A stretch of DNA of 64,000 nucleotides from the NCBI GenBank assembly GCA_035509415.1, contig DATJLQ010000096.1:24919-88918 (forward strand), in the 5' to 3' direction. Within the stretch, counting starts at the first letter, position 1; each line of letters starts with the position of its first letter. The notes under the pieces were generated by a model. The model saw only the letters and a program-made list of their open reading frames with translations. It was not told the origin of the DNA and ran no database searches. Shown one piece after another: positions 1-18,201 of the stretch. This DNA is from Alphaproteobacteria bacterium (GTDB taxonomy: Bacteria > Pseudomonadota > Alphaproteobacteria > JACZXZ01). A program made the position numbers and the translations under genes.

Positions 1-1118
1 AAGATCATGGCCGACGGAATCTGGCGTCCGATGATTTGCGCATCGTGCCCCGCCGCCGACGCCATCGTTTGGGACGGGAGCGCAAGTGCCTGCGCCGACG
101 CGTTGAGAATGCCGCGCAGCCGCGCATCCATCGCGGCGGGCTCGGACTGGTAGATCCGTCGACATTGCACCTCGAGGCCGTGCGTTGCGGCCGCGTTCCG
201 CGCCTCGCGCTCGACCGCGTCGGTCAACGCGCGCAGACACGCGCCGTCCGTGTCGCGTATCTCGAGCCCGAGGCGCGCAAGCGCGGGCACGACGTTGCCG
301 GCGCCGGGCTCGATCTTGACGATCCCTATGGTCATGACCGCGCGACCCTCGCCGCGCTCGACCACAACCTGCCGCAGCGACGTCGCGAACAAGGCGGCGG
401 CGGCGAACGCATCCTGGCGATCGCCCATCGGCGTCGAGCCGGCATGGTCCGGACGCCCTTCGAACCGGATGGAGAATCGCGCCTGGCCCGCGATCGCATC
501 GATGATGCCGATCGGGAGACCCTTGCGCTCCAGGATCGGACCCTGCTCGATGTGGAGCTCGAGATAGCCGGCGATTTCGTCGACGGGCCGGCGCGCATTC
601 GGGAGCGCCTCGATCGACAGTCCCGCCGACGACAACGCGTCGGCAAGGGTCACGCCGCCCGTGTCGCGCATCCGGGAAAGTTGCGCCGTATCGAGGAACC
701 CCATCATCGCGCGGCTACCCGTGAAGGCGCCGAACCGGCCCTCCTCGTCCTCGAAGGCGACGATCTCGAGCGGCCGCGCCCGGTTCGCCCGCTCGTCCTG
801 GAGCCGGCGCGCGACCTCGAGACCCGCGAGCACGCCGAGCGTGCCGTCGAGCGGCCCGCCGTTCGGCACCGTATCGATGTGAGAGCCGAGCATGAGGACG
901 GCCGGTTCGCCCGTCCCGACAGAAGCGGGCAAGCGCCCGATCACGTTGAAGGCAGGATCGACGCGGGCCACCAAGCCGGCGGCCGCCATTCTTTCCGCAA
1001 GCCAGCGCCGCGCATCGAGATCGGCCGGCGTATAGGCGCGCCGGGTATTGCCCCCGCTCGGCTCGGCGCCGAACCGCGCCAACGCGTCGAGATCGTCGCG
1101 CAGACGGGAATATTTCAC
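1..1118 (-). CDS. N-carbamoyl-amino-acid / beta-ureidopropionase-type amidohydrolase (M20, allantoate amidohydrolase family); 3' end runs off window start
   Basis: Hand translation of the minus-strand frame that is absent from the ORF track gives an uninterrupted reading frame from 1118 to position 1. It contains family hallmarks GSHIDTVPNGGPLDG, VAFEDEEGRFG, ELHIEQG, HAGSTPM and GHDAQ...PSAMIF. GTG start at 1118 overlaps the hydantoinase TGA stop (GTGA). The track probably omits it because of the GTG start and the missing stop. Confidence 0.8.
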   Translation of the reverse strand, partial: MKYSRLRDDLDALARFGAEPSGGNTRRAYTPADLDARRWLAERMAAAGLVARVDPAFNVIGRLPASVGTGEPAVLMLGSHIDTVPNGGPLDGTLGVLAGLEVARRLQDERANRARPLEIVAFEDEEGRFGAFTGSRAMMGFLDTAQLSRMRDTGGVTLADALSSAGLSIEALPNARRPVDEIAGYLELHIEQGPILERKGLPIGIIDAIAGQARFSIRFEGRPDHAGSTPMGDRQDAFAAAALFATSLRQVVVERGEGRAVMTIGIVKIEPGAGNVVPALARLGLEIRDTDGACLRALTDAVEREARNAAATHGLEVQCRRIYQSEPAAMDARLRGILNASAQALALPSQTMASAAGHDAQIIGRQIPSAMI

Positions 1119-2530
1119 GGCGCCGCTCCGACGCCGATGCCCGAGGCGAGATCGGGCTTGCCGCGCTTGATGAAGCGCCCATCGCCCGCGGTGCCGAGAT
1201 AACGACCTTCCTCCACCGCGACCGCGCCGCGCCGGACCGTGCAGACGGGCATGCCGGACAGGTCGACGTCGGGGTAAATGTTGTAGCCGACCGGGCCGTA
1301 ATGCGACTGAGCCGTGAGGCGCGTGCGCCGCTCCGGGTCGATGACGACCAGGTCCGCGTCGCTGCCCGGCGCGATCGTGCCCTTACGCGGCGCGAGCCCG
1401 AACAGCTGCGCCGGCCCCTCGCTCCAGATTCGGACGAGCTGCGGAAGGGTCAGCCGCCCCGTCTCGACGCCGAAGGTATAGATCAGCGGCAACCTGAACT
1501 CGGCGCCGTAGACGCCGTTTACCGTCGTCGCGAACGAGCCCGACGACGCGGTCTTCGCTTCGGCGCTGAAGGACGCATCGTCCGAGCCGACCGCGGCGAG
1601 CGTTCCGTCTTCAAGACCCGCCCAGAGGAGCTTCTGGTCCTCGGCCGTCCTGAGAGGCGGGCTCATGACGTAGAGGGTACCATCGGCGCGCTCGTAGCGG
1701 GAATCGTCGAGCGTCAGATAATGGGGACAGGTCTCGGCGAATACCGGCAGACCGCGCCGACGCGCCGCCCGGATGTTGGGAACTTCGCGGCCCAGCGCCA
1801 GGTGGAAAATGTAAATGCCCGCGCCGGCGGCTTCCGCAAGCGAGATCGCGCGCCGCACCGCTTCGGCCTCGGCGATGGGCGGGCGGGTGAGCGCGTGAAA
1901 ACGAGGCGCGACTTCGCCTTTGGCGAGACAACGCGCGGTCTCGTAAGCGATGATCTTCTCGTTCTCGGCATGGACGCCGACCAGGGCTCCTTCGCGACCC
2001 GCGACGCGCAGCAGCGCCAGCAGGGCGCCGTCATCGAGCATGAGGCCGTCCTTTTCGTACGTCATATAGGTCTTGAACGACGTCACGCCCTCTCGCATGA
2101 CGGCCGGGATCTCGGCCAGCGTCGCTTCGTTCACGTCGGTCACCACGATGTGAAGCCCGTAATCCACCGCGACCCGGGCATCGGCCTGCATGCGCCGATG
2201 CTTGAGCCCGTCCGTCAAGCTCCGGCCCCGGCGCTGGAGCGCGAAATCGACGACCGTGGTCGTCCCGCCTCTCAGCGCCGCGACGCCGCCGGAAAAGAAG
2301 TCGTAAACCGATCGGCACGACATGAACCCGACCAGAAAATGGGTGTGCACGTCGACCCCGCCCGGCAACACGAGCTTGCCCGTGGCGTCGATAACGCGCG
2401 CGGCATCGTGGCGTTCGCCGGGTGCCGCGACGGCGGCGATTTGCTCCCCGCGAATCAGCACGTCGCCACGCTCGGCACCCCTGCCCGTGACGACGGTGCC
2501 GCCGACGACGGCAAGATCGACCTCCGTCAT
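1115..2530 (-). CDS. D-hydantoinase / dihydropyrimidinase (cyclic amidohydrolase)
   Basis: Protein MTEVDLAVVGGTVV...GGVDVHTHF...VHAENE... is typical of metal-dependent dihydropyrimidinase/hydantoinase. The ATG at 2530 is chosen because it overlaps the upstream gene's start region. The longer track ORF (to 2728) would overlap the upstream CDS. Confidence 0.88.
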   Translation of the reverse strand: MTEVDLAVVGGTVVTGRGAERGDVLIRGEQIAAVAAPGERHDAARVIDATGKLVLPGGVDVHTHFLVGFMSCRSVYDFFSGGVAALRGGTTTVVDFALQRRGRSLTDGLKHRRMQADARVAVDYGLHIVVTDVNEATLAEIPAVMREGVTSFKTYMTYEKDGLMLDDGALLALLRVAGREGALVGVHAENEKIIAYETARCLAKGEVAPRFHALTRPPIAEAEAVRRAISLAEAAGAGIYIFHLALGREVPNIRAARRRGLPVFAETCPHYLTLDDSRYERADGTLYVMSPPLRTAEDQKLLWAGLEDGTLAAVGSDDASFSAEAKTASSGSFATTVNGVYGAEFRLPLIYTFGVETGRLTLPQLVRIWSEGPAQLFGLAPRKGTIAPGSDADLVVIDPERRTRLTAQSHYGPVGYNIYPDVDLSGMPVCTVRRGAVAVEEGRYLGTAGDGRFIKRGKPDLASGIGVGAAP

Positions 2531-3693
2531 ACCGCCTCCAACGCCTGCGCCAAGTCGGCGACGATGTCTTCCGCCGCCTCGATGCCAACGGAGAGTCGCA
2601 CCAGATTGTCGGGTATTCCGAGTGCGAGACGTGTCGCCGCGGGCACGCTGTAATGCGACGTCGCGATCGGTTGACTGATCAAGCTTTCGATTCCGCCCAG
2701 ACTCGGGCCGAGCCTGCACAGCTTGCACCGGTCCACCAGGCGGCGCGCGGCATCGCCGTCGCCGCGCACCTCGAAGGACAGCAAGCCGCCGAAGCCCCGC
2801 ATCTGCCGCGTGGCGAGCGCATGCTGTGGGTGGCTCTCGAGACCGGGATAATGGACGCGTTCGACCTTGGGATGCGCCTCCAGGAAACCCGCGAGCGCCG
2901 TGCCATTCTCGTTGTGCTGGCGAATGCGTAGCGCATAGGTGGAGAGGCCGCGATGGACCAGCCAGGCCGCGAGCGGCTCCAGGATCGGCCCGGCGACGAA
3001 TTGCAGATGTCGCACGGCGCGCGTGTGCGCGCGCGCGCCCGCGACCGCGCCCACGATCACGTCGCTGTGGCCGTTCAGGTACTTGGATGCGCTATGCACG
3101 ACCAAGTCGGCGCCGAGCTCGAGCGGACGTTGGTTGAGCGGACTGCCGAGGGTGCCGTCGACGATGAGCGTCACCGCGTTTCGCCGCGCGACCTCAGCCA
3201 CCGCCCGCAAATCGACGATGCGCAACAGCGGATTCGTCGGCGTCTCGACGAAGACGACGCGCGTCGCCGGCGTGATGGCCGCCTCGATCCGGCCGGGATC
3301 GTGCGAATCGCACCAATTCACCTTGATGCCGTGCCGCGGCAGGATCTCGGAGAAGTAATGATGCGTGCCGCCGTAGACGTCGGCGAGGCTGACCATTTCG
3401 TCGCCCGCCTTGAGGCAAGCCCCGACGGCGGCCGCGGTCGCCGCCATGCCGGACGAGAAGGCGACCGCCGATTCCGCTCCCTCGAGGCGCGCGAGCTTCT
3501 CCTCGAGCGCCATCACCGTCGGGTTGCGCAAGCGGGAATAAACGAAGCCCTGCCGCTCGCCGCGATTGATCGCCATGAGCGCCGCGGTATCCGGCGCCGC
3601 GAACGTCACCGTCTGGTAGATCGGCGGGCTGACGGCGCCGAGCTGCCGGTCCGGGTGATTGCCGGCGTGGACCGCGACCGTGTCGATCTTCAT
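2527..3693 (-). CDS. PLP-dependent Cys/Met-metabolism enzyme (cystathionine gamma-synthase / beta-lyase / methionine gamma-lyase family)
   Basis: MKIDTVAVHAG...YSRLRNPT...SASKYLNGHSD is the classic trans-sulfuration fold, with the conserved S-x-S-K PLP-binding lysine motif. Start ATG at 3693 overlaps the ACAD stop (ATGA). The N-terminal 380 residues of the 772-aa track ORF are antisense noise over the ACAD gene. Confidence 0.85.
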   Translation of the reverse strand: MKIDTVAVHAGNHPDRQLGAVSPPIYQTVTFAAPDTAALMAINRGERQGFVYSRLRNPTVMALEEKLARLEGAESAVAFSSGMAATAAAVGACLKAGDEMVSLADVYGGTHHYFSEILPRHGIKVNWCDSHDPGRIEAAITPATRVVFVETPTNPLLRIVDLRAVAEVARRNAVTLIVDGTLGSPLNQRPLELGADLVVHSASKYLNGHSDVIVGAVAGARAHTRAVRHLQFVAGPILEPLAAWLVHRGLSTYALRIRQHNENGTALAGFLEAHPKVERVHYPGLESHPQHALATRQMRGFGGLLSFEVRGDGDAARRLVDRCKLCRLGPSLGGIESLISQPIATSHYSVPAATRLALGIPDNLVRLSVGIEAAEDIVADLAQALEAV

Positions 3694-4832
3694 CGCAGGA
3701 GCTCGCGACCGATCACGAGGCGCAGGATCTCCGGCGTGGGGGCGATTTCGGCGAGCCGGGCATCGCGATAGTGGCGCTGCATGTCGAATTCCATGAGGAA
3801 GCCCCATCCCGCCATGATGCGCATGCCTTCGAGCGCCGCCTTCATGTAGGTCTCCGCGGACTTCAATCGCGCCAGACCGGAGCTGCGGGAATTGTTCGTG
3901 CCGCGGTCGACCTCCCAGGCGCTGCGATGGACGAGCATGCGCGATGCGCTGATCTCCATGTCCATGTCGACCAACTTGCCCTTGATCGGTTGGAATTCGG
4001 AGATCGGCCGCCCGAACTGCTTGCGCTGCTTCGCGTAAGCCAGCGCGAGATCGAAGCACGCCTGCGACGCGCCCACGTTCACCGCCGAAAGACAGCAGCG
4101 TTCGTAGTCGAAGCTCTTGAGGACGTTGGTCCAGCCCTTGTTGACTCCGCCGACGACGTCGTCGCGCGGTACGCGCACATCGGTGAGGAAGATTTCGTTG
4201 ATGTCCATCGGCTTGAGGCCGAGCTTCTTGATCTTGCGCAGCTCCACGCCCGGCGTCCTTGGATCGATCAGGAACATGGTGATGCCCTCTTGCTTGGGCG
4301 CGTCCGGGGCGGTGCGCGCGAGCAGGAGGATGTAGTCCGCTTCCTGCGCGCACGAGCAGAACATCTTCTGACCGTTGACGATCCAATGATCGCCGTCGAG
4401 CTGGGCGCGCGTTCGCAGCGCCGCGGCATCCGATCCGGAATCGGGCTCGGAAACGGAAAAAGCGAACCGGATCTCGCCTTTGGCCAATCTGGGCAATAGC
4501 TTGCGCTTTTGCTCCTCGCTGCCGAAATGGGTCAGCATGTCGGCGCCGATCACGATCGTCGTGTAAAAGATGTTGGCGCCCGCCTCGAAGGTATGCGCGA
4601 ACTCCTCGAGGAACACGATCAGATCCATGCAACTGGCGCCGGTGCCGCCATAGGCTTCGGGAATCGGCAGGCCGAGCCACCCCTGGTCGGCGAGCTTGCG
4701 GAATAGCTCCTCCGGGAACCTCGCCTCTTCGTCGCAGGCGCGAACGTATTCGGGCGGACATTCCTTCCGTAGGAACGAGCGCAGGCCGTCGCGCAAGGCT
4801 TCCTGTTCCGGTGACAGAGAAAAATTCAACAT
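3690..4832 (-). CDS. acyl-CoA dehydrogenase
   Basis: 380 aa with typical ACAD architecture and motifs (FAD-binding region, catalytic Glu region ...YRDARLAEIAPTPEI...). Confidence 0.88.
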   Translation of the reverse strand: MLNFSLSPEQEALRDGLRSFLRKECPPEYVRACDEEARFPEELFRKLADQGWLGLPIPEAYGGTGASCMDLIVFLEEFAHTFEAGANIFYTTIVIGADMLTHFGSEEQKRKLLPRLAKGEIRFAFSVSEPDSGSDAAALRTRAQLDGDHWIVNGQKMFCSCAQEADYILLLARTAPDAPKQEGITMFLIDPRTPGVELRKIKKLGLKPMDINEIFLTDVRVPRDDVVGGVNKGWTNVLKSFDYERCCLSAVNVGASQACFDLALAYAKQRKQFGRPISEFQPIKGKLVDMDMEISASRMLVHRSAWEVDRGTNNSRSSGLARLKSAETYMKAALEGMRIMAGWGFLMEFDMQRHYRDARLAEIAPTPEILRLVIGRELLR

Positions 4833-4890
4833 CCGCTTCCTCCAAAGTTCGTCGTCATTGTCGCAGGACCGGCGCAGCCGCCGGCGCGAG

Positions 4891-5979
4891 CTAGCTTTCC
4901 ACGATGATGGTGCTGTCCTCGGTCCACGACGCCCACACGGTCTGGCCGGCCGCCCAGCTTTCGCTTCCGCGCTCGCCTTCCGCCGACTGGAGCAGGACGT
5001 CGAGCTCGCGGCCGCTCTCGAGGCGCACCTTCAGCTGGCAGAGCGCTCCCTGGAAGATCGTGTCCGTGACGACGCCGCGAAAGCTGTTGCCCGCGCCCCG
5101 TTCGGCCGAGAGCGCGATCTTCTCCGGCCGGACACCGACCGTCGCTTCGGTGCCGCGTCCCATCGGCCCGTTGGCGCGCGCCCGGATCGGCAGGTCCGGT
5201 GCCGCGGCGATCACGACCGTCGAATTCCCCGCCTCGGCAACCGGTCCGCTGAAAATGTTGCACGAGCCGATGAAATCGAGGACGAAGCGGCTCCGCGGCC
5301 GATTGTAGATGCGGGCCGGCGTGTCAAGCTGCTCGAGCACGCCGAGGTTCATGACGGCGATCCGGTCCGAGAGCGTCAGGGCCTCGTCCTGGTCGTGGGT
5401 CACGTAGATGAAGGTGATCCCCAGGCTGCGCTGGATGCGCTTGAGCTCGAGCTGCATGCGCTTGCGCACCCGGAGATCGAGCGCTCCCAACGGCTCATCG
5501 AGCAGCAGAACGGTCGGCTTCCGAATGAGCGCCCGCGCGAGCGCCACGCGCTGCTGCTGGCCCCCCGAAAGCTGGTGCGGAAAGCGCCCCTCCATGCCGG
5601 CGAGGTCGACGACTTCGAGCATTTCCCCGCAGCGACTGCGCATCTCCTGCTTCGGCCGCCGCGCGATGCGGAGCGAGTAGACGATGTTGTCGTATACCGT
5701 GAGGTGCGGGAAGAGCGCATAGTGCTGGAACACCGTGTTCACGTCGCGCTTGTGGGGCGGCACGCCCGCGACCGGCTTTCCCTTCAGCAGGATTTCGCCT
5801 TCGTCCGGCACCTCGAAGCCGGCAACGAGTCGCAACGTGGTCGTCTTGCCGCATCCGCTCGGCCCGAGAACGGAGAGAAATTCGCCATGGTGCACGGCGA
5901 GGGACAAATTATCGACGGCAAGCGTGCCGTTGAACCGCTTGACGATGCCCTTGAGCTCCAGATCGAAGTTTGCGCTCAT
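4891..5979 (-). CDS. ABC transporter ATP-binding protein (PotA/spermidine-putrescine type)
   Basis: Walker [13 protein letters not shown] signature [15 protein letters not shown], Walker [13 protein letters not shown]-terminal TOBE-like domain. Confidence 0.9.
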
Positions 5980-6049
5980 CGCTCGGGTTTTCCGCCTTCA
6001 GTGTCGGGGGTGAATCGAGAGACGGACGGCGCTCGTGCCGCGCGCCCGC

Positions 6050-8251
6050 TCATGGGTTCGACAGCGGCGCCGGCGCCGGCGACCGGGCCGCGGCGGCGGC
6101 GAGCCGGGATCCGTCCGCGGCGGCATTCAGCCTCAGGCGCGCGTCGAGCGCCACGGCGCCCGTGCCGGTCGCGAGGATCGGGTTGATCTCGAGCTCGGCA
6201 ACCTCGGGCGCCTCGGCGAGCCGGCACAGGTCCGTGACGAGCCGAATCAGGGCGGCGCGATCCACCGGGGTTCGGCCGCGATGCCCTTGCAGGAGCGCTG
6301 CCCCCTTGAGCTCGGCGAGCATCTCCGCGACCTCGATCTCGTCGACCGGCAGGAGCCTCAGGCTCACATCCTCGAGCACCTCGACGCTGACGCCGCCGAG
6401 CCCGACCATGACGTACTTCCCGAACTGGGCATCCTCGGAAACGCCGCAGAGGAGCTCGATCCCCTTTTCGAGGATCATGGGCTGCACGCTGACGCCGTCG
6501 AGGCTGACCCCTGCGTCGAGCCGCTCGAACTTCGCCACCAGCGCCCGATAGGCCGAGGCCACCTCGGCCTCGTCGCGCAGGCCGAGCGCGACGCCGCCGA
6601 CGTCCGATTTGTGCGTGACCTGCGCGGATTGGATCTTGAGCGCGACCGGGAAGCCGATCGCCGTCGCGTGCGCGACTGCGCTCTCGACGCTCGTCGCGAG
6701 GCGCGAGGTCGCGACCCGGAGACCCGCCGCGTGGAGCAGCGTCTTCGCGTCATGCTCGGTGACGACCGTCTCCCCCTTTGCCGCCCGCGCCGCGAGGCCA
6801 ACGCGCCACGCCTCGGGCGCGGGCGCGGACGCCGCGCGTCGGCTCCATGCCGCCGCGCCCACGATGCGGCCGCGCGCGACGACGCCGCCCATGATGTGCA
6901 CCGCATCCTCCGGCATTTCCGAGACCGGGACGCCGCGCGCGTGAAACGTCGCCGAGATGCGATCGAACTCGACCCCGCCGGCTTCGTCCATCACCCAGCC
7001 GACCGAGGCTGCGACGCCGCGCGCGATCGCCGCCTCGAGAACCGGCGCGAGATGGGACGCGTAGGCGTCGTTGCCGAACGCCGCCGAGCCGGGCACGCCC
7101 ATGACGAGCGGCACGATGCCATCATATTCGCCGCTGGCCGCGAGGATCTCGACCGTTTGCGCCAGCATCGCCGGCGTCACGTCGCCAGTCAGGTCGATGG
7201 GATTGCGCATGCTCGCCATGGGCGGAAGGACATGCGCGAGAAGCGCCTTGGTCGCCTCGGACGGCGCCGGCAACGCGAGCTTCGCGCGCTCGCACGCGTC
7301 CGACGCGATCACGCCCATGCCGGCGAGGCTCGTCACAATCGCGATGCGGTCGCCCTGCGCCGGCCGCTGGTGCGCGAGGGCGAAGGTCAGCATGCCGAGG
7401 AGGCTTAGGGACTCGGCCGGCACGACACCCGCCTTGCGGAATGCCGCCCGGTAGATCCGCGCCGGACTCGAGATGCTCGCGGTGTGGGAGAAGATGGCGC
7501 CCAGCCCCGCCGCGGTGCGCCCGCCCTTGAGGACGACGATCGGCTTGGTTTCGCTCGCGCGCCTGGCGACCTCGACGAAGTGGCGGCCCGACTTGACGCT
7601 CTCGACGTAAAGGCCGATCGCGCGCACGCGCGGATCGCACGCGAGGAACTCGATGATCTCGGCATCCGAAATGTCGGCCTGGTTGCCGAGGCAGATGAAG
7701 CGGCCGAACTCGATCCCCTTGGCAAGAAGGCCGCGGACGAGCGCATAGCCGACCGAGCCCGCCTGGGAGACGATCGCGAGCGGCCCGCCCCCGACGGGAC
7801 CGCCCGCGAGCGTCGCGACCAGGCTGGCATCGGCGTTGATGAAGCCGGGGATGTTGGGCCCGAGCACGCGCATGGAGCCGCGCGCGCACACGCCTTCGAT
7901 CGCCCGCTGGAGGTCGACGCCGCGGACCCCGCTCTCGGCAAAGCCGCCGGCGGGGATGATGGCGCCCTTGACCCCGCGAGACGCAAGGGTCTCGAGGACG
8001 CCGGGAACCTTCTCCGCCGGCAGCATGACGATCGCCAAATCGACGTTTTCGGGGAGATCGGCGGAGTCCCTCACGCACTCGAGACCGAGGATCGATCCCG
8101 CGGCCGGATTGACGGGGTAGATCTTGCCTCGGTACCCGCCCTTGAGGATGCCCTCGACGCAGGCATAGCCGAGCTTCTCCGGATTCGCCGAGGCTCCCAC
8201 CACGGCGATGCTCCGAGGAAAGAAAATGCCGGCAAGCGGGTGTTCGACCAT
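6050..8251 (-). CDS. NDP(ADP)-forming acyl-CoA synthetase, fused CoA-binding/succinyl-CoA-synthetase-like and ATP-grasp domains
   Basis: N-terminal CoA-binding Rossmann (SIAVVGASANPEKLGY...) and C-terminal ATP-grasp (...GFPVALKIQSAQVTHKSDVGGV...). Start taken at MVEHPL (8251). The upstream 80 aa of the track ORF are low-complexity. Confidence 0.78.
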   Translation of the reverse strand: MVEHPLAGIFFPRSIAVVGASANPEKLGYACVEGILKGGYRGKIYPVNPAAGSILGLECVRDSADLPENVDLAIVMLPAEKVPGVLETLASRGVKGAIIPAGGFAESGVRGVDLQRAIEGVCARGSMRVLGPNIPGFINADASLVATLAGGPVGGGPLAIVSQAGSVGYALVRGLLAKGIEFGRFICLGNQADISDAEIIEFLACDPRVRAIGLYVESVKSGRHFVEVARRASETKPIVVLKGGRTAAGLGAIFSHTASISSPARIYRAAFRKAGVVPAESLSLLGMLTFALAHQRPAQGDRIAIVTSLAGMGVIASDACERAKLALPAPSEATKALLAHVLPPMASMRNPIDLTGDVTPAMLAQTVEILAASGEYDGIVPLVMGVPGSAAFGNDAYASHLAPVLEAAIARGVAASVGWVMDEAGGVEFDRISATFHARGVPVSEMPEDAVHIMGGVVARGRIVGAAAWSRRAASAPAPEAWRVGLAARAAKGETVVTEHDAKTLLHAAGLRVATSRLATSVESAVAHATAIGFPVALKIQSAQVTHKSDVGGVALGLRDEAEVASAYRALVAKFERLDAGVSLDGVSVQPMILEKGIELLCGVSEDAQFGKYVMVGLGGVSVEVLEDVSLRLLPVDEIEVAEMLAELKGAALLQGHRGRTPVDRAALIRLVTDLCRLAEAPEVAELEINPILATGTGAVALDARLRLNAAADGSRLAAAAARSPAPAPLSNP

Positions 8252-8264
8252 CGTTCGCCCCGCC

Positions 8265-9377
8265 TCAGGCCGCCTTGACTTCGGTCCAGGTCTGGACCCA
8301 GTCGTTGAGGTTGAGCGGATAATCGAGGAACAGGACGTCCTTGAGGGTTTCGGCGATGCGATCGTACCCGAGCTCGACTTGCAGCTTCGGCGTGAGGTCC
8401 TTGAGCAGGAGCTCGGACGTGGCGTTGTAGCCCTCGTCGCGGCCCACGGCGGCGCCCCAATACGGCCCAAGCGTCCAGTCGATGAAGGCATAGCCCGTCT
8501 TCACGAGCTTGGTGTCCTTCGACATGACGTAGTAGTGGATGGCGCCGATCCCCTTTTCTTTCGGGATCGCGTATTTCATGTTCATCCCCTCCTTGGCGAG
8601 CGCCCACCACATCGGCCGCCAACCGGAGAGCGCCCAAACCTCGCCGCTGCGGAGCAAGGTCATCGCCTCGGCGTACCCGGTCCAGAGTTTGCGGAAGTTC
8701 TTCTTCTTCGAGATCAGGAACTTTTTGATCTCCAGGAGGTCGGCGGCGGAGAGCACCGACGGATCCTTGTGGCCGAGATACAGCGCGGTGAGCTGAATCG
8801 CGTTCTGCGCGTCGTCGCGCAGCGCCACCTTGCCCGCGTACTTGTCGTCGAACAGGACGCCCCACGAATCGACGTTCGGAATGTGATCGGCGTTATAAAC
8901 GACCGAATCGTAGGTCCATACATAGGGCACGCCGTAAACCTTGCCTTCGTAGTCCGCGAACTTCGCGCGCTTGAAATACGGGAACAGGTGCGCCGCGTTC
9001 GGAATATCGGCCATGTTGAGCGGATGGAGCAGGCCGCGCCGAATGATCGGATAGAGGAACGCATGGTGGACCGCGACCACGTCCCACTCTGCCGTGGCGC
9101 CGGTCGCGAGCTTGGTGAGGGTCGAGAGGTTCGAGGTCCAGCAGGCGCGCGTGACCTGCACGTCCTTGGCCTTCTCGAACACGGCGATGTCGCCTTCCCG
9201 GCACCAGGTCGGGCACAGGCAATGTACGGTGAGGGGCCCGGCAAGGCCGGCGGCCCCGGCACTCGGCATCATCGGAAAGCCCATCGAGAGGAGACTCGCG
9301 CCGGCGCCGATCTGCAGCGCTTGCCCGAGCAGGCCTCGACGTGTCACGGAAAATCCGCGGTCAGTGCGATTCGACAT
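8265..9377 (-). CDS. ABC transporter periplasmic substrate-binding protein (PotD/PotF-like) with Tat-type signal
   Basis: RRGLLGQALQIGAGASLL twin-arginine signal followed by a type-II SBP fold. Sits between the permeases and the ATPase of the same importer. Confidence 0.85.
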   Translation of the reverse strand: MSNRTDRGFSVTRRGLLGQALQIGAGASLLSMGFPMMPSAGAAGLAGPLTVHCLCPTWCREGDIAVFEKAKDVQVTRACWTSNLSTLTKLATGATAEWDVVAVHHAFLYPIIRRGLLHPLNMADIPNAAHLFPYFKRAKFADYEGKVYGVPYVWTYDSVVYNADHIPNVDSWGVLFDDKYAGKVALRDDAQNAIQLTALYLGHKDPSVLSAADLLEIKKFLISKKKNFRKLWTGYAEAMTLLRSGEVWALSGWRPMWWALAKEGMNMKYAIPKEKGIGAIHYYVMSKDTKLVKTGYAFIDWTLGPYWGAAVGRDEGYNATSELLLKDLTPKLQVELGYDRIAETLKDVLFLDYPLNLNDWVQTWTEVKAA

Positions 9378-9414
9378 TTTCCACCTCCATCTGTTTCAGG
9401 TTCTTTGGTTTTGG

Positions 9415-10242
9415 TTACTCCGCACGGTGAGCCTGACGGGAAAGCCGATAACCGACGGTCATCAGCGTCAGGCTGAACACGATCATCAGCGTCGCGATGG
9501 CGTTGGTCTCGGGCGAGACGTTCGCCATGAGCATGGACCAGAGATAGATCGGCAGCGTGTTGTCGACGCCGATCAGGAAGAAGGTCCGGATGAACTCGTC
9601 GAATGACAGCATGAATGCAAACACCGCCGCCGCGACGATACCGGGCATGACGATAGGCATGACGACGGTGCGGAACATTTGAAGCCTGGTCGCGCCGAGA
9701 TCGAGCGCGGCCTCCTCGATCGACGGGTCGAAGCGGTGAAAGCTCGGAAACACGAGGACAAAGATGAACGGCACCGTGTAGGTCACGTGCCCCATGAGGG
9801 TCGACCCGAACAACGACGGGCTCAAGCCCAGGAGGTTCCAGGTCAGATGCTGCGCCACGCCGACGATGATCGGCGGCGCGATCAGAGCCACGAGGATGAG
9901 GTTGAACAACACGCCCCGCAGGCGGAACCAGTGCCGGAAGGCGTAGGCCGCGCCCACGCCGATCGGCAGGGCCACGATCACGGTGACGACGCCGAGCTCG
10001 ATGGAGTTCAGCAGTGCCGTGCGCAGATCGTGATCCCGGAGCGCCACGCCGTACCAATGGAGGGTGAACCCGGCCCAGGGCGGCGTGATGCTCATGGTGT
10101 CGTTGAACGACAAGATCGAGAGACATAGGAGCGGCGCGTAAAGGAACACGTAAACGGCGAGGCCGAAGGTGCCCCAAAGAAGCGGCGCGAACGGGCCGCG
10201 CCGGCCGGGCATCCTCAGGCTTTGAACGCCGCTGCCCCGCAT
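9415..10242 (-). CDS. ABC transporter permease (PotC-like)
   Basis: Six-TM permease with EAA-like loop (IEEAALDLGATRLQMFRTVVMP). Confidence 0.85.
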   Translation of the reverse strand: MRGSGVQSLRMPGRRGPFAPLLWGTFGLAVYVFLYAPLLCLSILSFNDTMSITPPWAGFTLHWYGVALRDHDLRTALLNSIELGVVTVIVALPIGVGAAYAFRHWFRLRGVLFNLILVALIAPPIIVGVAQHLTWNLLGLSPSLFGSTLMGHVTYTVPFIFVLVFPSFHRFDPSIEEAALDLGATRLQMFRTVVMPIVMPGIVAAAVFAFMLSFDEFIRTFFLIGVDNTLPIYLWSMLMANVSPETNAIATLMIVFSLTLMTVGYRLSRQAHRAE

Positions 10243-10245
10243 CTC

Positions 10246-11154
10246 CTACGCCTCGCCGCCGAAGAAGACTTCCTTGAGACCGATCCGGCGCCCCACCACG
10301 AGCAAGACGACGGCAATGATCGCCGTGAACGCGACGGCGAGGCATGCGCCATAGGACCAGTTGAACGTCGCCCCGAACTGGTCGGCGATCATCTCGCCGA
10401 ACATCAGCCCCGATGGCCCGCCGAGCAGCTTGGGCGTCACGTAGGAGCCCGCCGTGAGAATGAATACCAACATCCCGCCGCCGACCGTGCCCGAGGCGCT
10501 CAACGGAAAGATCACGCGCCAGAAGGTCTCGACCCGGCCGGCGCCCAGATCCGCCGAGGCCTCGAGCAGAGAGCGGTCGATGCGGTCGAGTGCCAGATAA
10601 ATCGGGATCACGGCGAACGGGAACCAGACATAGATCAGACCGAGGACGACCGAGAACTGGGTAAACAGGAAACGCTCCGACGGCGCGGACAGAATGCCGA
10701 GCCAGAGCAGGATGGAGTTCAGGACGCCGTTGGTGCCCAGGATCGGATACCAGGCGTAGGTGCGGATCAGGTAGCTGATCCAATAGGGCACCAGGATGAG
10801 CAGCAGGTAGAAATGGCGGTGGCGCGACTGGCGCGAGGCGACCCAGTACGCCATCGGGTAACCGAGCAAGAGAACGATCGCCGTCACCTCGATGCCGATC
10901 CAGATCGACTTGCCGAGGAGCGACGCGTCGGTGCTCGTGGTCAAGAGATGGCGGTAGTTCCCAAGCGTCGGCACCCAGACGATCCCGGCGAACGACGACT
11001 TGAAGAACGAGATGAACACGACGAGGAGGGCGGGGACGATCAGGCACGCGCATAGGAGGAGGCCCGCGGGCAGAGCGGAAAGGGACGGCCAACGCGTCGC
11101 CTGTCTCTCCTCCATTCGATCCGGCCTCGCCTCCTGGTTCGGCGCCGCGCGCAA
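10246..11154 (-). CDS. ABC transporter permease (PotB-like)
   Basis: Permease with EAA loop (LLEASADLGAGRVETFWRVIFP). Alternative start MEERQ at 11115. Confidence 0.85.
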   Translation of the reverse strand: MRAAPNQEARPDRMEERQATRWPSLSALPAGLLLCACLIVPALLVVFISFFKSSFAGIVWVPTLGNYRHLLTTSTDASLLGKSIWIGIEVTAIVLLLGYPMAYWVASRQSRHRHFYLLLILVPYWISYLIRTYAWYPILGTNGVLNSILLWLGILSAPSERFLFTQFSVVLGLIYVWFPFAVIPIYLALDRIDRSLLEASADLGAGRVETFWRVIFPLSASGTVGGGMLVFILTAGSYVTPKLLGGPSGLMFGEMIADQFGATFNWSYGACLAVAFTAIIAVVLLVVGRRIGLKEVFFGGEA

Positions 11155-11200: not shown

Positions 11201-11221
11201 GTGTTTCAAATGTTGAAACAC
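11201..11221. promoter_or_regulatory. perfect 9-3-9 inverted repeat GTGTTTCAA-ATG-TTGAAACAC followed by T-rich tract; candidate operator (or weak plus-strand hairpin)
   Basis: Read directly from the sequence. Lies in the AT-rich 290-bp gap between the IclR gene and the first ABC importer gene (the first gene of the importer operon on the minus strand). Confidence 0.35.
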
Positions 11222-11441
11222 CGTTTCTTTTTTAAAGTATCGATGATTTGCGCCCCGTCGTCAAGGTTCCCCGCCCCACGACGGCTTCGGTGCGATAGCG
11301 CGCGTCCGCGTCCGGCACTGGATTGCGCGCGTGGCCGAAATCGATCGATGCCGGCCGGGGGGTTCGGCGGCACGGCCGATGAAATTCGTCAATTTTTCCG
11401 ACGTGCCGGTTCCTCGCGCATGGAAAGCGCCGAGCTTCGGC

Positions 11442-12335
11442 TCAGCGTAGACCTGCGGGCGCGACAGTGCGCCCCTTGCGCGCGCCCGCTTTCGACCTCG
11501 AGGACGAGGGCACGCCACGCCGGCCGCTCGTCGCCCCCTCGCCGTCATGCCAACCCGCGAGCGCGCCGGCGGCTGCGCGGTTCGCGGGCGATGTGATGAA
11601 CCCGAGCTCGGCGGAGATTCGGGCCGCCGAAGCGATCACCAGCGGGCTCATGGCACGCAACGCCGATACCGGCAGCCGGTTCGACGGCCCGGACGCGCCG
11701 ACCGACGCCACCACGGTGCCGACGCGGTCGCGGATCGGCGCCGCCACGCCGGAAATGCCGATGCGCCATTCGCCGACGTTGATCGCATAGCCCTGCTGCC
11801 GAACCGTTTCCAATTCGCGGAGGAGCCGCGCGGGCGCGGTGATCGTGCGCGGCGTGAACGCCTTGAGGTTGCGCCCGACGGAATCGATGAAGGCGGGCGC
11901 CTGGAAGGCGAGAACGCATTTCCCGGTCGAGCCGCAATAAAGGGGGACGCGGCCGCCGATCGGCGTGAAAATCCGCAGCGGGTGGGCACCGTCGGCTTTG
12001 TCGATGTATACGACGTCCTGGCCGTCGGGAATGGCGAGATGCACGGTCTCGCCGGTCTGCCCGGCCAGCTCGCGCAAGATGCCGGTCGCGATCCGGCTCA
12101 CGTCGCGCTGGGCAAGGATATGGGTGCCGATCTCCCACAGCTTCATGGTGAGCTCGTAGGTGCCGGCGCGGTCGCCCTGTTTGACGTAGCCGAGGCGCGC
12201 GAGCCCGTTCAGCAGGCGGTGAACGGTCGTCTTGTTGAGGCCGAGCGCCCGGGCCAACTCGCTGACCCCGTGCGGCGGCGGCTCCCTCGCGAGCGTCTCG
12301 ATCAATCTGATGGCCTTCGCGATGGTCTTCGACAA
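11442..12335 (-). CDS. IclR-family transcriptional regulator
   Basis: wHTH VSELARALGLNKTTVHRLLNGLARLGYV plus IclR effector domain. TTG start at 12335 is proposed, preceded by an AAAGGA Shine-Dalgarno, giving MSKTIAKAIRLIE.... The ATG at 12437 would overlap the upstream molybdoenzyme CDS by 65 nt. Confidence 0.75.
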   Translation of the reverse strand: MSKTIAKAIRLIETLAREPPPHGVSELARALGLNKTTVHRLLNGLARLGYVKQGDRAGTYELTMKLWEIGTHILAQRDVSRIATGILRELAGQTGETVHLAIPDGQDVVYIDKADGAHPLRIFTPIGGRVPLYCGSTGKCVLAFQAPAFIDSVGRNLKAFTPRTITAPARLLRELETVRQQGYAINVGEWRIGISGVAAPIRDRVGTVVASVGASGPSNRLPVSALRAMSPLVIASAARISAELGFITSPANRAAAGALAGWHDGEGATSGRRGVPSSSRSKAGARKGRTVAPAGLR

Positions 12336-14694: not shown

Positions 14695-14805
14695 GGCTCC
14701 TCTCGGCGCGCCGTTCGAGTTCGGCGTTCAGAATGAGAAACGCCGTTTCGAAAATTTAGCAGCGCAGGGCGCGCGGTCAAGCGCCTTCGGAACCGGCGCT
14801 CCGGC

Positions 14806-16568: not shown

Positions 16569-16594
16569 CCTCGCCTGCCGCACCCCGCGCACGT

Positions 16595-18193: not shown

Positions 18194-18201
18194 GGCTTCC
18201 C

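Follow-up and report, generated by a model that had tools for sequence, protein, structure and literature searches.

A conserved alphaproteobacterial operon joining a hydantoinase to acyl-CoA chemistry, with biotin as a candidate substrate

Nine minus-strand genes in a 64-kb stretch of alphaproteobacterial DNA (the window), together with the genes that flank them, form one operon and one catabolic unit. Gene content and synteny suggest that the cluster represents a conserved, uncharacterised alphaproteobacterial pathway. A CoA ligase, a MaoC hydratase and an acyl-CoA dehydrogenase (ACAD) are the constant partners of its hydantoinase. The hydantoin is most likely created by CoA-dependent oxidation, via an enzyme resembling isovaleryl-CoA dehydrogenase (IVD). 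The pathway probably acts on a carboxylic acid bearing a cyclic urea or ureide plus thioether sulfur; biotin or biotin sulfoxide is the leading candidate, as a best guess.

The initial annotation listed, within positions 1-11154, two permeases, a substrate-binding protein (SBP), an NDP-forming acyl-CoA synthetase, an ABC ATPase, an ACAD, a Cys/Met-family PLP enzyme, a hydantoinase and an M20 amidase, in that order. Pfam and NCBIfam agree on the family of each. The ATGA, ATGA and GTGA overlaps said to couple the last four genes were read directly: 4 nt are shared by ACAD and PLP enzyme (CGATGAAG, 3690-3693), by PLP enzyme and hydantoinase (GTATGACG, 2527-2530), and by hydantoinase and M20 amidase (CCGTGAAA, 1115-1118). 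The remaining intergenic gaps in the run are 3, 37, 13, 70 and 58 nt. Compared with the first report, the operon extends further, running beyond window coordinate 1 and having extra upstream genes. Past the window start, gene calls on contig L002, whose sequence matches the window at 100% identity where the two overlap, place a MaoC hydratase (L002 5629-6072), a CobW/COG0523 metallochaperone (L002 6132-7139), a rhodanese (L002 7186-7611) and a 4HBT thioesterase (L002 7650-8150), all outside the window. At the other end, genes for an IclR regulator and a BisC-family reductase precede the operon, outside 1-11154. These six genes lay beyond the view of the initial annotation and alter the picture.

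Synteny was followed through 45 related loci, of which 33 include downstream sequence and 20 have full flanks (the complete loci). The window's ACAD, ACAD2, is followed directly by the PLP gene in 19 loci and by the hydantoinase gene in 13, so that the ACAD2-(PLP)-hydantoinase adjacency holds in 32 of the 33; such recurrence is not what chance would produce. Catabolic genes form a mosaic over the entire window, and neighbours such as an AtzD cluster and a TRAP system are not conserved alongside the operon, as would suit a transporter operon and unrelated enzyme genes merely juxtaposed in a catabolic island. That there is no single pathway is nevertheless extremely improbable, given that synteny spans several alphaproteobacterial lineages, that genes are translationally coupled, that an operator is shared and that whole modules co-vary. 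The annotated idea of one catabolic unit joining uptake, the hydantoinase/M20 pair, the PLP lyase and the CoA steps is thereby supported.

The hydantoinase and MaoC genes are each found in 19 of the 20 complete loci, and a CoA ligase in 18: NDP-forming in 3 and AMP-forming in 15. Likewise, an Opp/Dpp-type system takes the place of the Pot-type importer in other genomes. Since ligase and importer are exchanged non-homologously, it follows that their functions are required, not the particular proteins. Other versions of the cluster carry a canonical ACAD1 and a crotonase, plus either MFE2-hydratase/SDR/BKACE or thiolase/FadB/ETF; the window version has no ACAD1, crotonase, 3-hydroxyacyl-CoA dehydrogenase or thiolase.

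The regulator, of 297 residues (11442..12335, minus strand; Pfam HTH_IclR and IclR_C), begins at a TTG codon in the gene call of the source contig. Its best NCBIfam matches are BhcR, KdgR and PcaR, every one under cut-off, and its gene occurs in 14 of the 20 complete loci. The 326-nt gap preceding the first permease gene contains a promoter-like site, TTGACG-17 nt-GATACT (11236..11264, minus strand; L001 1267-1295, with window = 12531 - L001). It is the sole match in 16 kb against a chance expectation of 1.4, and takes its meaning only from lying just upstream of a candidate IclR operator. The latter is a perfect 21-bp palindrome, GTGTTTCAA-CAT-TTGAAACAC (11201..11221), with the core GTTTCA-N5-TGAAAC, placed 14 nt past the -10 hexamer and 87 nt ahead of the PotB start; the palindrome is matched once within the window. 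At two or fewer mismatches the core occurs 48 times in 577 kb from 44 related loci, versus 5.4 times in shuffles (about 9-fold). Approximately 38 of these 48 sites lie 14-250 nt upstream of genes for PotB, ACAD1, MFE2hyd, AMP-ligase, SBP5, BisC or thiolase. In related loci the core is found ahead of the operons for the transporter, ACAD1, MFE2hyd/BisC/SDR/BKACE, the ligase and the thiolase, and one operator motif stands in front of most related operons. A degenerate operator-like site with 3 mismatches was read by eye about 30 nt upstream of the BisC start. In its architecture the region may represent one version ("type A") of a conserved catabolic regulon under IclR control, a view that we propose tentatively together with the pathway and substrate given below.

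The importer comprises a PotB-like permease (289 aa; 10246-11115) and a PotC-like permease (275 aa; 9415-10242), both BPD_transp_1, the periplasmic SBP (370 aa; 8265-9377; SBP_bac_8 and SBP_bac_6), whose leader reads as twin-arginine-type (VTRRGLLG), and a PotA-like ATPase with a TOBE domain (362 aa; 4891-5979; ABC_tran and TOBE_2), all on the minus strand. With the PotF model (cut-off 636) the SBP reaches 60 bits, and with PotD (cut-off 582) 51; its top solved structures give only about 60 bits. It has a PotD/PotF fold, yet a highly divergent one. The permeases score 196 bits versus 348 (PotB) and 168 versus 326 (PotC). The ATPase belongs to subfamily TIGR01187 (376 versus 355.6) and falls short of the PotA equivalog (395 versus 482). 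A canonical polyamine importer would have told against the annotated unit; because SBP, PotB and PotC fall below the Pot cut-offs, the system is Pot-type by architecture and not a canonical polyamine importer.

The synthetase (733 aa; 6050-8251, minus strand) is a fused alpha-beta protein with CoA_binding_2, Succ_CoA_lig, Ligase_CoA_2 and ATP-grasp_5 domains and a SHTAS motif. Its gene is, as annotated, inserted between those of the SBP and the ATPase, and the same placement is found in Pseudolabrys and two metagenome loci. It stays below every equivalog: acetate 458 versus 1200, 3-hydroxypropionate 397 versus 1300, and 4-hydroxybutyrate 386 versus 1300.

ACAD2 (380 aa; 3690-4832, minus strand; three ACAD domains) has no Glu where the IYEGT motif carries one: the window reads EI-APTPEI and the orthologues EIGGGTSEI, like the IGAGT of IVD. 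It retains a Glu in DYER, aligned to DYER of S. meliloti IVD 4kto. The catalytic base is therefore predicted at the IVD position, and the structures of IVD and MCAD teach that this position in IVD leaves room for a beta-branched substrate. ACAD2 is the cluster's most conserved gene, with 64-88% identity among the best 120 of 260 clusters at E<=1e-100. Its family is small, all named sources are alphaproteobacterial, and members include marine Roseobacter-group bacteria and rhizobia.

The hydantoinase (471 aa; 1115-2530, minus strand) is a metal-dependent cyclic amidohydrolase of the D-hydantoinase/dihydropyrimidinase type, above the curated TIGR02033 cut-off (482 versus 393 bits). Aligned to D-hydantoinase 1yny, it conserves HTH, the Lys in SFK, VHAEN, FHL, GSD, SPPLR and NG; none of the metal ligands is lost, and the SPPLR and NG motifs that bind the ring are intact. 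The M20 hydantoinase/carbamoylase-family amidase (<1-1118, minus strand) is cut by the window edge after its first 372 codons; identical contigs give the full protein of 422 aa, which exceeds the cut-offs of TIGR01879 (362 versus 204 bits) and of the subfamily model NF006771, "allantoate amidohydrolase" (426 versus 399). Its closest structure is the Geobacillus L-N-carbamoylase 3n5f (250 bits); allantoate amidohydrolase 1z2l follows with 233 bits.

The PLP enzyme (388 aa; 2527-3693, minus strand; PF01053, 475 bits) is presumed to be a C-S lyase. It reaches no equivalog cut-off (methionine gamma-lyase, MGL, 425 versus 550 bits), and its closest structures are the Xanthomonas CGL-like protein 4ixs and then CGLs and MGLs. 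Methionine gamma-lyases have a Cys in YGCT where this enzyme has YGGT; with the MGL cut-off missed as well, methionine is an unlikely substrate. By eye, two residues typical of enzymes acting on alpha-amino acids are kept, the lysine and the arginine in RLSVG. The enzyme is translationally coupled on either side, and its paralogues share at least 58% identity inside such clusters and at most 52% outside them.

The BisC-family molybdopterin S/N-oxide reductase (773 aa; 12373..14694, minus strand) is encoded 37 nt upstream of the IclR gene and scores 1030 bits against the TIGR00509 (bisC_fam) cut-off of 1017.55. Its alignment to DMSO reductase precursors begins only after the signal peptides of the latter (query residue 3 pairs with residue 48); a Tat signal is therefore lacking, and the enzyme should be cytoplasmic. 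In loci L091, L100, L105, L113 and L114, BisC lies inside an MFE2hyd-BisC-SDR-BKACE operon.

The direction of flow is where we depart from the initial annotation. It had an imported 5-substituted hydantoin or dihydropyrimidine opened and decarbamoylated, after which the PLP enzyme would carry out a deamination or elimination and the resulting acid would be CoA-activated and oxidised. The coupling of the PLP, hydantoinase and M20 genes fits this order, as do a bona fide hydantoinase/dihydropyrimidinase beside a carbamoylase-type M20 enzyme, and a thiol acid from a C-S lyase, for example a carboxy-thiol freed from an S-substituted cysteine, could in principle serve the ligase. All 13 loci with PLP also have M20, and 12 of these 13 have the rhodanese, which is found in none of the 7 without PLP (Fisher p = 1e-4, phylogenetic non-independence ignored). 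However, those 7 of the 20 complete loci lack M20, PLP and rhodanese together while keeping ligase, both ACADs, hydratases and hydantoinase. The CoA steps are thus independent of that branch's product, and the branch is reckoned to be optional and downstream, not a bridge to the CoA steps. Moreover, Cys/Met-family lyases yield a 2-oxo acid, which is no CoA-ligase substrate; BisC and the beta-oxidation sets would have no role; and we know of no natural source of such an imported hydantoin. The annotated order is consequently unlikely. As ACAD, ligase and MaoC are constant and M20/PLP optional, the flow is probably the reverse.

The hyu clusters (Arthrobacter aurescens hyuP-A-H-C; the D-hydantoinase plus carbamoylase of Agrobacterium/Pseudomonas), known from the "hydantoinase process", likewise set a cyclic amidohydrolase and then a carbamoylase beside an uptake system, and the window's M20 enzyme is nearest to an L-N-carbamoylase. 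In contrast, a hydantoin racemase and an NCS1-type hydantoin permease are missing from the window, and hyu clusters for their part do without an ACAD, a CoA ligase, MaoC, a Cys/Met lyase, a rhodanese and BisC. Unlike in hyu systems, the hydantoin is here probably generated inside the cell, not imported.

A CoA-dependent variant of reductive pyrimidine catabolism would convert dihydrouracil or dihydrothymine to a 3-ureido acid and its CoA ester; ACAD2 would form ureidoacrylyl-CoA, and MaoC hydration would free urea and a malonate-semialdehyde-type CoA ester. Alternatively, M20 would give beta-alanine, metabolised as beta-alanyl-CoA. The hydantoinase, like that of the PydA/PydB/PydC route, matches the dihydropyrimidinase equivalog TIGR02033; bacterial PydC may be an M20 enzyme, and the beta-ureidopropionase 8c46 is among the M20 structure matches. 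Hydantoinase, ligase, ACAD2 and MaoC would make a full route without M20, fitting type-C loci, and the best NCBIfam similarity of both ACAD1 and ACAD2 is to acryloyl-CoA reductase. Against this, dihydropyrimidine dehydrogenase (PydA) is absent from the 13 annotated loci, M20 is dispensable in a third of loci, and the tightly linked CoA and sulfur genes are left over: the PLP enzyme between ACAD2 and hydantoinase, the rhodanese and BisC would be idle, and the long-chain-type AMP ligase (PRK08314, 722 bits) and full beta-oxidation sets go unaccounted for. We regard the pyrimidine route as very unlikely.

The scheme that we prefer makes the hydantoin from a CoA ester; gene models, families, motifs, synteny, co-variation and the shared operator are read from the sequences, whereas the order of steps and all substrates, biotin included, are deduced from families and gene content. 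The divergent Pot-type system would import the acid, the BisC-family reductase would reduce any sulfoxide form, and the NDP-forming synthetase would activate the acid. ACAD2 would then dehydrogenate at the beta-substituted (ring) carbon and MaoC add water; hemiaminal collapse or retro-aldol cleavage would turn the ring carbon into a carbonyl, giving a 5-substituted hydantoin. The hydantoinase, probably metallated by the COG0523 GTPase, would open the ring, and the M20 amidase would take off the carbamoyl group to leave an L-amino acid. Finally, the PLP enzyme would cut the C-S bond, releasing a thiol and ammonia and leaving a 2-oxo acid; the rhodanese would deal with sulfur, and the 4HBT thioesterase would free CoA. 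Ergothioneine catabolism (ErtD, ErtE) similarly turns a sulfur natural product into a 5-substituted hydantoin and this into an N-carbamoyl-L-amino acid, and ErtE is the second-best NCBIfam match of the M20 enzyme. The equivalogs are nonetheless missed (ErtD 207 versus 650, ErtE 400 versus 520 bits); the cluster has no ergothionase, thiourocanate hydratase or desulfhydrase, and the Ert pathway has no CoA chemistry.

Sulfur in the substrate is supported by the PLP/M20/rhodanese co-variation and by BisC inside pathway operons. It could also belong to another organosulfur acid: a compound of the DMSP/3-methylthiopropionate type, for instance, or an S-carboxyalkyl-cysteine, whether or not oxidised to the sulfoxide. 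Ligase, ACAD and a thiol-releasing hydratase would act by DmdBCD-like logic, with hydantoinase and M20 acting on a cyclic amide side-product. The ligase/ACAD/crotonase trio resembles DmdB/C/D at family level, BisC suggests sulfoxides, a Cys/Met lyase and rhodanese are present, and the marine Roseobacter-group and rhizobial hosts would suit. CoA-dependent carnitine/gamma-butyrobetaine catabolism, too, uses ligase, ACAD and hydratase to break a heteroatom-carbon bond, and employs BKACE plus a betainyl-CoA thioesterase; BKACE is present in related loci, and the 4HBT thioesterase resembles the carnitine dehydrogenase C-terminal domain (97 bits). However, all these similarity scores are far under equivalog cut-offs, and neither the Dmd nor the carnitine pathway includes a hydrolase for a ureide ring, a carbamoylase or a PLP lyase. 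No other gene is linked to ACAD2 as tightly as the hydantoinase (19/20), which keeps canonical ring-binding residues; this argues that a ureide ring is central and not incidental; none of the organosulfur compounds has one. This alternative is quite unlikely.

Biotin, with its sulfoxide and its bisnor/tetranor catabolites, would account for every part and is our leading candidate. Beta-oxidation would shorten the valerate chain to leave tetranorbiotinyl-CoA. ACAD and hydratase, acting on the imidazolidone/thiophane system, would yield 5-[(carboxymethylthio)methyl]hydantoin. From this the hydantoinase would make N-carbamoyl-S-carboxymethyl-L-cysteine and M20 in turn S-carboxymethyl-L-cysteine, which the PLP lyase would split into pyruvate, NH3 and thioglycolate. 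Biotin C6a comes from the C-alpha of L-alanine, and the predicted product is therefore an L-cysteine derivative, in agreement with an L-type carbamoylase. Soil Pseudomonas studied by McCormick, Wright and co-workers in the 1960s-70s reportedly degraded biotin through biotinyl-CoA and beta-oxidation to bisnor- and tetranorbiotin, with sulfoxides, and are said to have finally released ureido carbon, nitrogen and sulfur. The gene set described here could supply those activities, to which, to our knowledge, no genes were ever assigned; we found no paper on this cluster or on genes of bacterial biotin catabolism. The present organisms are Alphaproteobacteria, not Pseudomonas, and the hydantoin is our proposal and no reported catabolite.

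Several points weigh against biotin. The window version has no chain-shortening set of its own, so that housekeeping enzymes would be needed or the real substrate would be shorter. BisC homologues occur in 7 of the 20 complete loci and are absent from 13, and the rhodanese has no obvious role beside a thiol product. The biotin-specific genes bioY, birA and bioR were not seen in the 13 annotated loci. D-hydantoinase-scoring enzymes are usually D-selective, whereas the scheme requires an L- or non-selective one; BisC-family enzymes reduce methionine sulfoxide, DMSO and TMAO as well. Taken whole, with the type A regulon and biotin as substrate, the pathway is a tentative proposal, resting on gene content and chemistry on paper, that we consider plausible yet somewhat short of probable. 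Biotin is scarce in the environment, so a dedicated operon would be surprising; the rarity of the cluster family is compatible with such a niche function.

Nine genes, all transcribed from the minus strand (1–11115), make up the operon as first reported, and Pfam and NCBIfam searches confirm every family named by the initial annotation. The G+C content of the window is ~68%, and long spurious ORFs are common as a result; ORFs with high third-position G+C were taken as genes. The order is as follows. Two permeases, PotB-like and PotC-like (BPD_transp_1), are followed by a solute-binding protein (SBP; SBP_bac_8) with a twin-arginine leader, a fused acyl-CoA synthetase of the NDP-forming type, a TOBE-domain ABC ATPase, the acyl-CoA dehydrogenase ACAD2 (3690–4832), a PLP enzyme, a hydantoinase and an M20 amidohydrolase. 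The overlaps reported for the last four genes are read directly in the sequence, i.e., ATGA at 3690–3693, ATGA at 2527–2530 and GTGA at 1115–1118; the remaining intergenic gaps are 3–70 nt.

The window edge truncates the M20 gene. Three public metagenome contigs encode the hydantoinase protein; two of them match the window at 100% identity over 5.4 and 2.8 kb, and the third (145 kb) at 99.94%. On these near-identical contigs the operon runs past window position 1. The full M20 gene (422 aa) is followed by genes for a MaoC-type hydratase (147 aa), a COG0523/CobW GTPase, a single-domain rhodanese and a 4HBT-type thioesterase, with gaps of 38–67 nt. Upstream of the first permease, also on the minus strand, are an IclR regulator (11442–12335) and a 773-aa BisC-family S/N-oxide reductase (12373–14694). 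Thus, the operon is larger than first reported, with extra genes on both sides.

The four components of the importer share the PotABCD/PotFGHI architecture, as had been proposed, whereas sequence comparison does not support membership among the canonical polyamine importers. All fall below the polyamine equivalog cut-offs: PotA 395 vs. 482, PotB 196 vs. 348 and PotC 168 vs. 326, with the SBP at 60 vs. 636 bits for PotF and 51 vs. 582 bits for PotD. The ATPase passes only the broad potA subfamily model (376 vs. 355.6), and the best match of the SBP to any solved structure is ~60 bits. The NDP-forming synthetase, of the ACD superfamily, carries PF13380, PF13607, PF19045 and PF13549 in a single chain, that is, CoA-binding, succinyl-CoA-ligase-like and ATP-grasp domains; it reaches no acetate, 3-hydroxypropionate or 4-hydroxybutyrate equivalog. 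The BisC-family reductase passes TIGR00509 (1030 bits, cut-off 1017.55) and by family is of the biotin/methionine sulfoxide reductase type. Its alignment to the DorA/TorA (DMSO/TMAO reductase) precursors starts past their signal peptides, so the enzyme is predicted to lack a leader and to be cytoplasmic.

The hydantoinase scores 481.9 bits against TIGR02033, the D-hydantoinase/dihydropyrimidinase equivalog (cut-off 393.25). Its DVHTHF, SFKTYM, VHAEN, IFHLA, GSDD, MSPPLR and VNGV segments align with the counterpart residues of D-hydantoinase 1yny. All ligands of the binuclear metal site (HxH, carbamylated Lys, His, His, Asp) are kept, as are the ring-binding motifs SPPLR and Asn-Gly; the roles of these residues are those assigned in published structures. 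The substrate should therefore be a true acyl-urea ring, i.e., a hydantoin or dihydropyrimidine. The M20 protein passes TIGR01879, the hydantoinase/carbamoylase-family amidase model (362 bits, cut-off 204). GSHIDTV, DG.LGV, DEEG, ELHIEQG, DHAGSTPM, NVVP, IRD and GHDA align with the Geobacillus L-N-carbamoylase 3n5f, the metal- and carboxylate-binding residues of which are kept. M20 also passes the 'allantoate amidohydrolase' subfamily model NF006771 (426 vs. 399 bits), so its exact ureide substrate is not fixed; in structure comparison, too, its score against allantoate amidohydrolase almost equals that for L-N-carbamoylase.

Among the downstream proteins, MaoC retains its Asp/His dyad (SGDYSPIH), the rhodanese active-site loop reads CASGWRS, and the thioesterase is similar to the C-terminal carnitine dehydrogenase domain (97 bits). 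In the COG0523 GTPase, the P-loop reads GSGKT and a CLCC motif is present. COG0523 proteins are metallochaperones, and this one accompanies the hydantoinase in two of the three cluster architectures described below (types A and C); hence it is plausibly a metallochaperone dedicated to the hydantoinase.

The PLP enzyme is a member of the Cys/Met superfamily (PF01053, 475 bits) and, judged by model scores, belongs to none of the named orthologue groups: it falls below methionine γ-lyase TIGR01328 (425 vs. 549.7 bits) and cystathionine γ-synthase NF005871 (426 vs. 513 bits). The nearest solved structures are cystathionine γ-lyase-like proteins, and the PLP lysine and the RLSVG arginine are retained. 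The enzyme reads VYGGTHHYF, with the Gly invariant across the subfamily alignment, at the position where methionine γ-lyases carry the active-site Cys of YGCT. A route from methionine hydantoin through a methionine γ-lyase was ruled out, as this signature Cys is missing and the equivalog failed; such a route would also leave the acyl-CoA dehydrogenases, hydratases and BisC without a role. The closest relatives, at 58–80% identity, are in Pseudolabrys, Mesorhizobium, Roseovarius, Ochrobactrum and Frigidibacter. A scan of the genome collection with the PLP-subfamily alignment gave unrelated paralogues at 79 of 80 loci, the motifs being generic to all Cys/Met enzymes. As a negative control, the paralogues of ≤52% identity from that scan never sit in such clusters. 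A plasmid search with the PLP enzyme gave no orthologues, every match being <48% identical.

ACAD2 has the three acyl-CoA dehydrogenase domains but not the MCAD/SCAD-type catalytic Glu of (I/V)YEGT; the window protein reads EI-APTPEI and its orthologues EIGGGTSEI. Its DYER aligns with DYER of S. meliloti isovaleryl-CoA dehydrogenase (IVD) 4kto, and IA.PTP with IGAGT. That is, ACAD2 has an IVD-type site, with a helix-G Glu (LE/YER position) and Gly/Ala replacing the YEGT Glu, and this signature is conserved in seven ACAD2 orthologues. In IVD, the helix-G arrangement leaves space for a β-branched substrate. ACAD2 is nevertheless not an IVD orthologue by sequence, its overall similarity being no better than to other acyl-CoA dehydrogenases. 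A second acyl-CoA dehydrogenase, ACAD1, found in other versions of the cluster (types B and C), has a canonical IWEGT. The ACAD2 family is compact, with at least 260 clusters at E ≤ 1e-100; the best 120 of these 260 are 64–88% identical, and among them all organism-named ones are alphaproteobacterial.

Related loci comprised 13 annotated neighbourhoods and 34 further loci from a metagenome scan with the ACAD alignment. A tblastn matrix of 30 query proteins sorts them into three architectures. Type A (the window, Pseudolabrys and two metagenome contigs) has the order [BisC]-IclR-PotB-PotC-SBP-NDP synthetase-PotA-ACAD2-PLP-hydantoinase-M20-MaoC-CobW-rhodanese-thioesterase. Type B (Mesorhizobium, Bosea, Frigidibacter, Roseovarius, Ochrobactrum and others) has ACAD1-crotonase-ACAD2-PLP-hydantoinase-M20-AMP ligase-MaoC, with IclR and rhodanese divergent from it, usually an Opp/Dpp-type ABC system, and either MFE2 hydratase-(BisC)-SDR-BKACE or thiolase-FadB-ETF. 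Type C (Phreatobacter, Falsiroseomonas and others) has ACAD1-crotonase-ACAD2-hydantoinase-(CobW), with ligase, MaoC and an Opp system nearby; the PLP enzyme, M20 and rhodanese are missing. The gene immediately after ACAD2 encodes the PLP enzyme at 19 loci, the hydantoinase at 13 and neither at one. The last, L121 (Ga0255334_1000583), is the only locus that has ACAD1-crotonase-ACAD2 and 10 kb downstream yet lacks a hydantoinase; with its weaker E-value for ACAD2, it may be a decayed or rearranged copy.

Gene counts refer to 20 loci, duplicates excluded, that have ≥6 kb of sequence on either side. Hydantoinase and MaoC are each present at 19, a CoA ligase at 18 (15 AMP-forming, 3 NDP-forming) and ACAD1 at 17. 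The PLP enzyme is found at 13 loci and M20 at 13, always together, while rhodanese is found at 12 and BisC at seven. Rhodanese occurs at 12 of the 13 PLP-bearing loci vs. none of the seven PLP-free ones (Fisher p = 1e-4, shared ancestry ignored); BisC is present both with and without PLP. M20, PLP enzyme and rhodanese are thus an optional downstream module.

Several further features of these loci may be recorded. In five type-B loci (L087, L090, L099, L116 and L127; e.g., Bosea sp. 685 and Mesorhizobium australicum), a HyuB-HyuA pair is divergent from MFE2 hydratase-SDR-BKACE. Sites like the operator described next lie in the shared intergenic region at all four loci scanned (L087, L090, L099 and L116), so the regulon of that subclade may include this pair, an ATP-dependent hydrolase of lactam or urea rings. 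The BKACE of Bosea sp. 685 (L090, 5421–6353) passes the '3,5-dioxohexanoate:acetyl-CoA acetone transferase' equivalog (510 vs. 430 bits). The phloroglucinol-type pathway that this match brought to mind was rejected as the reason for the hydantoinase, since its ring-opening enzyme belongs to the 'cyclase' family (PMC10470551). A 'racemase' adjoining two clusters (L088, L093) scores best as EutA-like or arylmalonate-decarboxylase-like and, given those scores, was not counted as evidence for a hydantoin racemase. The ergothioneine pathway was set aside as well, its equivalogs having failed (ErtD 207 and 199 vs. 650 and 600; ErtE 400 vs. 520).

The 326-nt gap before the first permease contains a promoter-like TTGACG-17-GATACT; promoter and terminator scans are not significant alone. 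Fourteen nt beyond is a perfect palindrome, GTGTTTCAA-CAT-TTGAAACAC (11201–11221), giving GTGTTTCAACATTTGAAACAC as the candidate IclR operator. Its core, GTTTCA-N5-TGAAAC, occurs only once in the 64-kb window. With ≤2 mismatches allowed, 48 sites are found in 577 kb of related loci vs. 5.4 in shuffled sequence. Roughly 38 of them are intergenic, 14–250 nt upstream of the first genes of operons, these being the transporter, ACAD1, MFE2 hydratase/BisC/SDR/BKACE, ligase, SBP5, BisC and thiolase operons. The common operator joins transporter, CoA-dependent enzymes, BisC and hydantoinase module in one regulon, presumably controlled by the cluster's IclR protein. The initial annotation had named, as an outcome that would speak against its proposal, a canonical polyamine importer with independently regulated enzymes; neither is seen, the operator being common to both and the importer scoring below the polyamine models. 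Chance juxtaposition of the genes is scarcely credible, as it is excluded by synteny and operator. In the window, GTTTCTCATTCTGAACG (14725–14741, minus strand), ~30 nt upstream of the BisC start, resembles the core with three mismatches, and in a Pseudolabrys-like contig (L094) a two-mismatch site lies 34 nt upstream of BisC. These sites suggest that BisC is under the same control, the window site being too degenerate to count.

The pathway first proposed runs from an imported hydantoin or dihydropyrimidine to an amino acid, then through the PLP enzyme to an acid that is activated and oxidized as a CoA ester. This flow is unlikely, because the constant partners of the hydantoinase are the CoA ligase, the IVD-like ACAD and MaoC; type-C loci do without M20, PLP enzyme and rhodanese, and the 2-oxo acid that a Cys/Met-family lyase would release is no substrate for a CoA ligase. 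A CoA-dependent ureidopropionate variant of pyrimidine catabolism accounts neatly for the four invariant genes but gives no account of the PLP enzyme, rhodanese, BisC or the long-chain-type ligase. Moreover, no Pfam families of dihydropyrimidine dehydrogenase, the missing enzyme of the reductive (Pyd) pathway, are in the gene lists of the 13 annotated loci, and we consider this variant quite improbable.

From gene content, we suggest instead that CoA-dependent oxidation probably comes first and forms the ring that is then opened by the hydantoinase. An imported acid would be CoA-activated and, in types B and C, chain-shortened by β-oxidation. ACAD2 would dehydrogenate at the carbon bearing the ring nitrogen, and hydration of the product would give a hemiaminal. 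Collapse of the hemiaminal, or a retro-aldol cleavage in hydratase-lyase style, would leave a carbonyl at that carbon, i.e., a hydantoin. Hydantoinase, carbamoylase and C-S lyase would then complete the breakdown in that order. The presence of BisC suggests that the substrate also exists as a sulfoxide, and the rhodanese and Cys/Met lyase suggest that sulfur is freed at the last step.

Which acid enters such a scheme is a separate matter. Gene content and chemical logic make biotin itself a possible substrate, put forward tentatively. Its valerate side chain, with the reported bisnor and tetranor catabolites, fits the ligase and β-oxidation; its thioether, which oxidizes to biotin sulfoxide, fits BisC; and C3a of the cyclic urea, being β to the tetranorbiotin carboxyl, fits an IVD-like ACAD and a hydratase. 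These last two enzymes would oxidize the ring carbon of tetranorbiotinyl-CoA and so convert the inert cyclic urea to a hydantoin. Cleavage of C2-C3a would yield 5-[(carboxymethylthio)methyl]hydantoin. Biotin C6a derives from Cα of L-alanine, and C5 of the hydantoin equals C6a; the product would therefore have the L-cysteine configuration, suited to an L-carbamoylase and an L-specific lyase. An ordinary hydantoinase, L-carbamoylase and C-S lyase would dismantle it, the end products being pyruvate, ammonia, CO2, acetyl-CoA and thioglycolate. The findings reported in classical work on biotin degradation in Pseudomonas would agree with this scheme. Direct hydrolysis of the urea ring of biotin by the hydantoinase was rejected on chemical grounds: the product carbamate would decarboxylate spontaneously, making the M20 decarbamoylase needless, and the hydantoinase keeps its acyl-urea-ring-binding residues.

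Several points weigh against biotin. No biotin-specific gene is seen at any of the 13 annotated loci, and the window version is without chain-shortening enzymes. Enzymes that score as D-hydantoinases are usually D-selective, BisC enzymes are promiscuous, and biotin is scarce in nature. Another organosulfur acid as substrate would leave the ureide ring without explanation, and we regard it as improbable. Literature searches turned up no paper on this cluster, nor any account at gene level of how bacteria catabolize biotin. Nothing relevant was found for hydantoinase with ACAD, carbamoylase, cystathionine or biotin sulfoxide reductase, nor for S-carboxymethylcysteine with thioglycolate. A review of biotin production says nothing about catabolic genes (PMC11089781). 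It is conceivable, if doubtful, that this family of clusters encodes the catabolism of biotin (vitamin B7) in bacteria, for which the genes have long been missing; it would then include a new ring-conversion strategy and a BisC-type reductase that brings biotin sulfoxide into the pathway.

The cluster is a defined, conserved, uncharacterized catabolic regulon in which known enzyme families appear in a new combination. Hydantoinase/carbamoylase pairs are widespread, and to our knowledge few natural substrates other than pyrimidines, allantoin and ergothioneine have been established for them. Here such a pair is tied to CoA-dependent β-oxidation-type enzymes, a sulfoxide reductase and sulfur-handling proteins, and gains a concrete physiological context from synteny, translational coupling, the common operator and module co-variation. 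As far as we know, bacterial biotin degradation has been known only biochemically, for some 60 years. If biotin is the substrate, the cluster would supply the genes for that pathway, explain the opening of an inert cyclic urea, and mark bacteria that destroy rather than share the vitamin; many soil and marine microbes are auxotrophic for it. If the substrate differs, the family is still a defined target: it has a predicted operator, comprises at least 260 sequence clusters and occurs in cultured hosts, among them Bosea sp. 685, Mesorhizobium australicum, Phreatobacter aquaticus, Roseovarius aestuarii, Frigidibacter sp. MR17.14 and Ochrobactrum sp. XJ1.

Other catabolic genes surround the operon. 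Downstream, outside the window, the 145-kb contig L001 carries at 15634–21416 a LysR regulator, SBP_bac_3, a 2OG-Fe(II) oxygenase, an AtzD/TrzD-family ring amidohydrolase (barbiturase/cyanuric acid hydrolase type) and two amidases, a separate N-heterocycle cluster that is not kept beside the operon in Pseudolabrys. On the other side, the window segment 14806–20927 (minus strand) includes a fused DctQM and DctP TRAP transporter, an ORF without Pfam match (17654–18379) adjacent to an aconitase-family large subunit (18202–19464), an RraA-like/aldolase protein (19498–20325) and a second IclR regulator (20127–20927). An uninterrupted ORF of 626 aa at 21094–22974 (plus strand) encodes HTH_IclR and IclR_C with NMT1_3 (a TAXI-like solute-binding domain) behind them; either two genes have been taken for one, or a regulator is fused, unusually, to a binding protein. 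A second PotA/PotD-type ABC system (22994–27139) adjoins an ATP-dependent hydantoinase/oxoprolinase pair (HyuB 27178–28998, HyuA 28999–31302), followed by a Rieske oxygenase (30992–32524) and another HyuB/HyuA pair (32768–37222); the operator motif is missing from all genes of 22994–37222. The remainder, 37623–64000, is a catabolic island with 2-oxoacid:ferredoxin oxidoreductase-like genes (37623–41460), a glyoxalase-family protein, an enolase-superfamily protein, TetR regulators, a Rieske oxygenase (45028–46407), two xanthine-dehydrogenase-family molybdoenzymes (48012–50465 and 58366–61344) with CoxG, a branched-chain-type ABC system and an Old-Yellow-Enzyme-family reductase.
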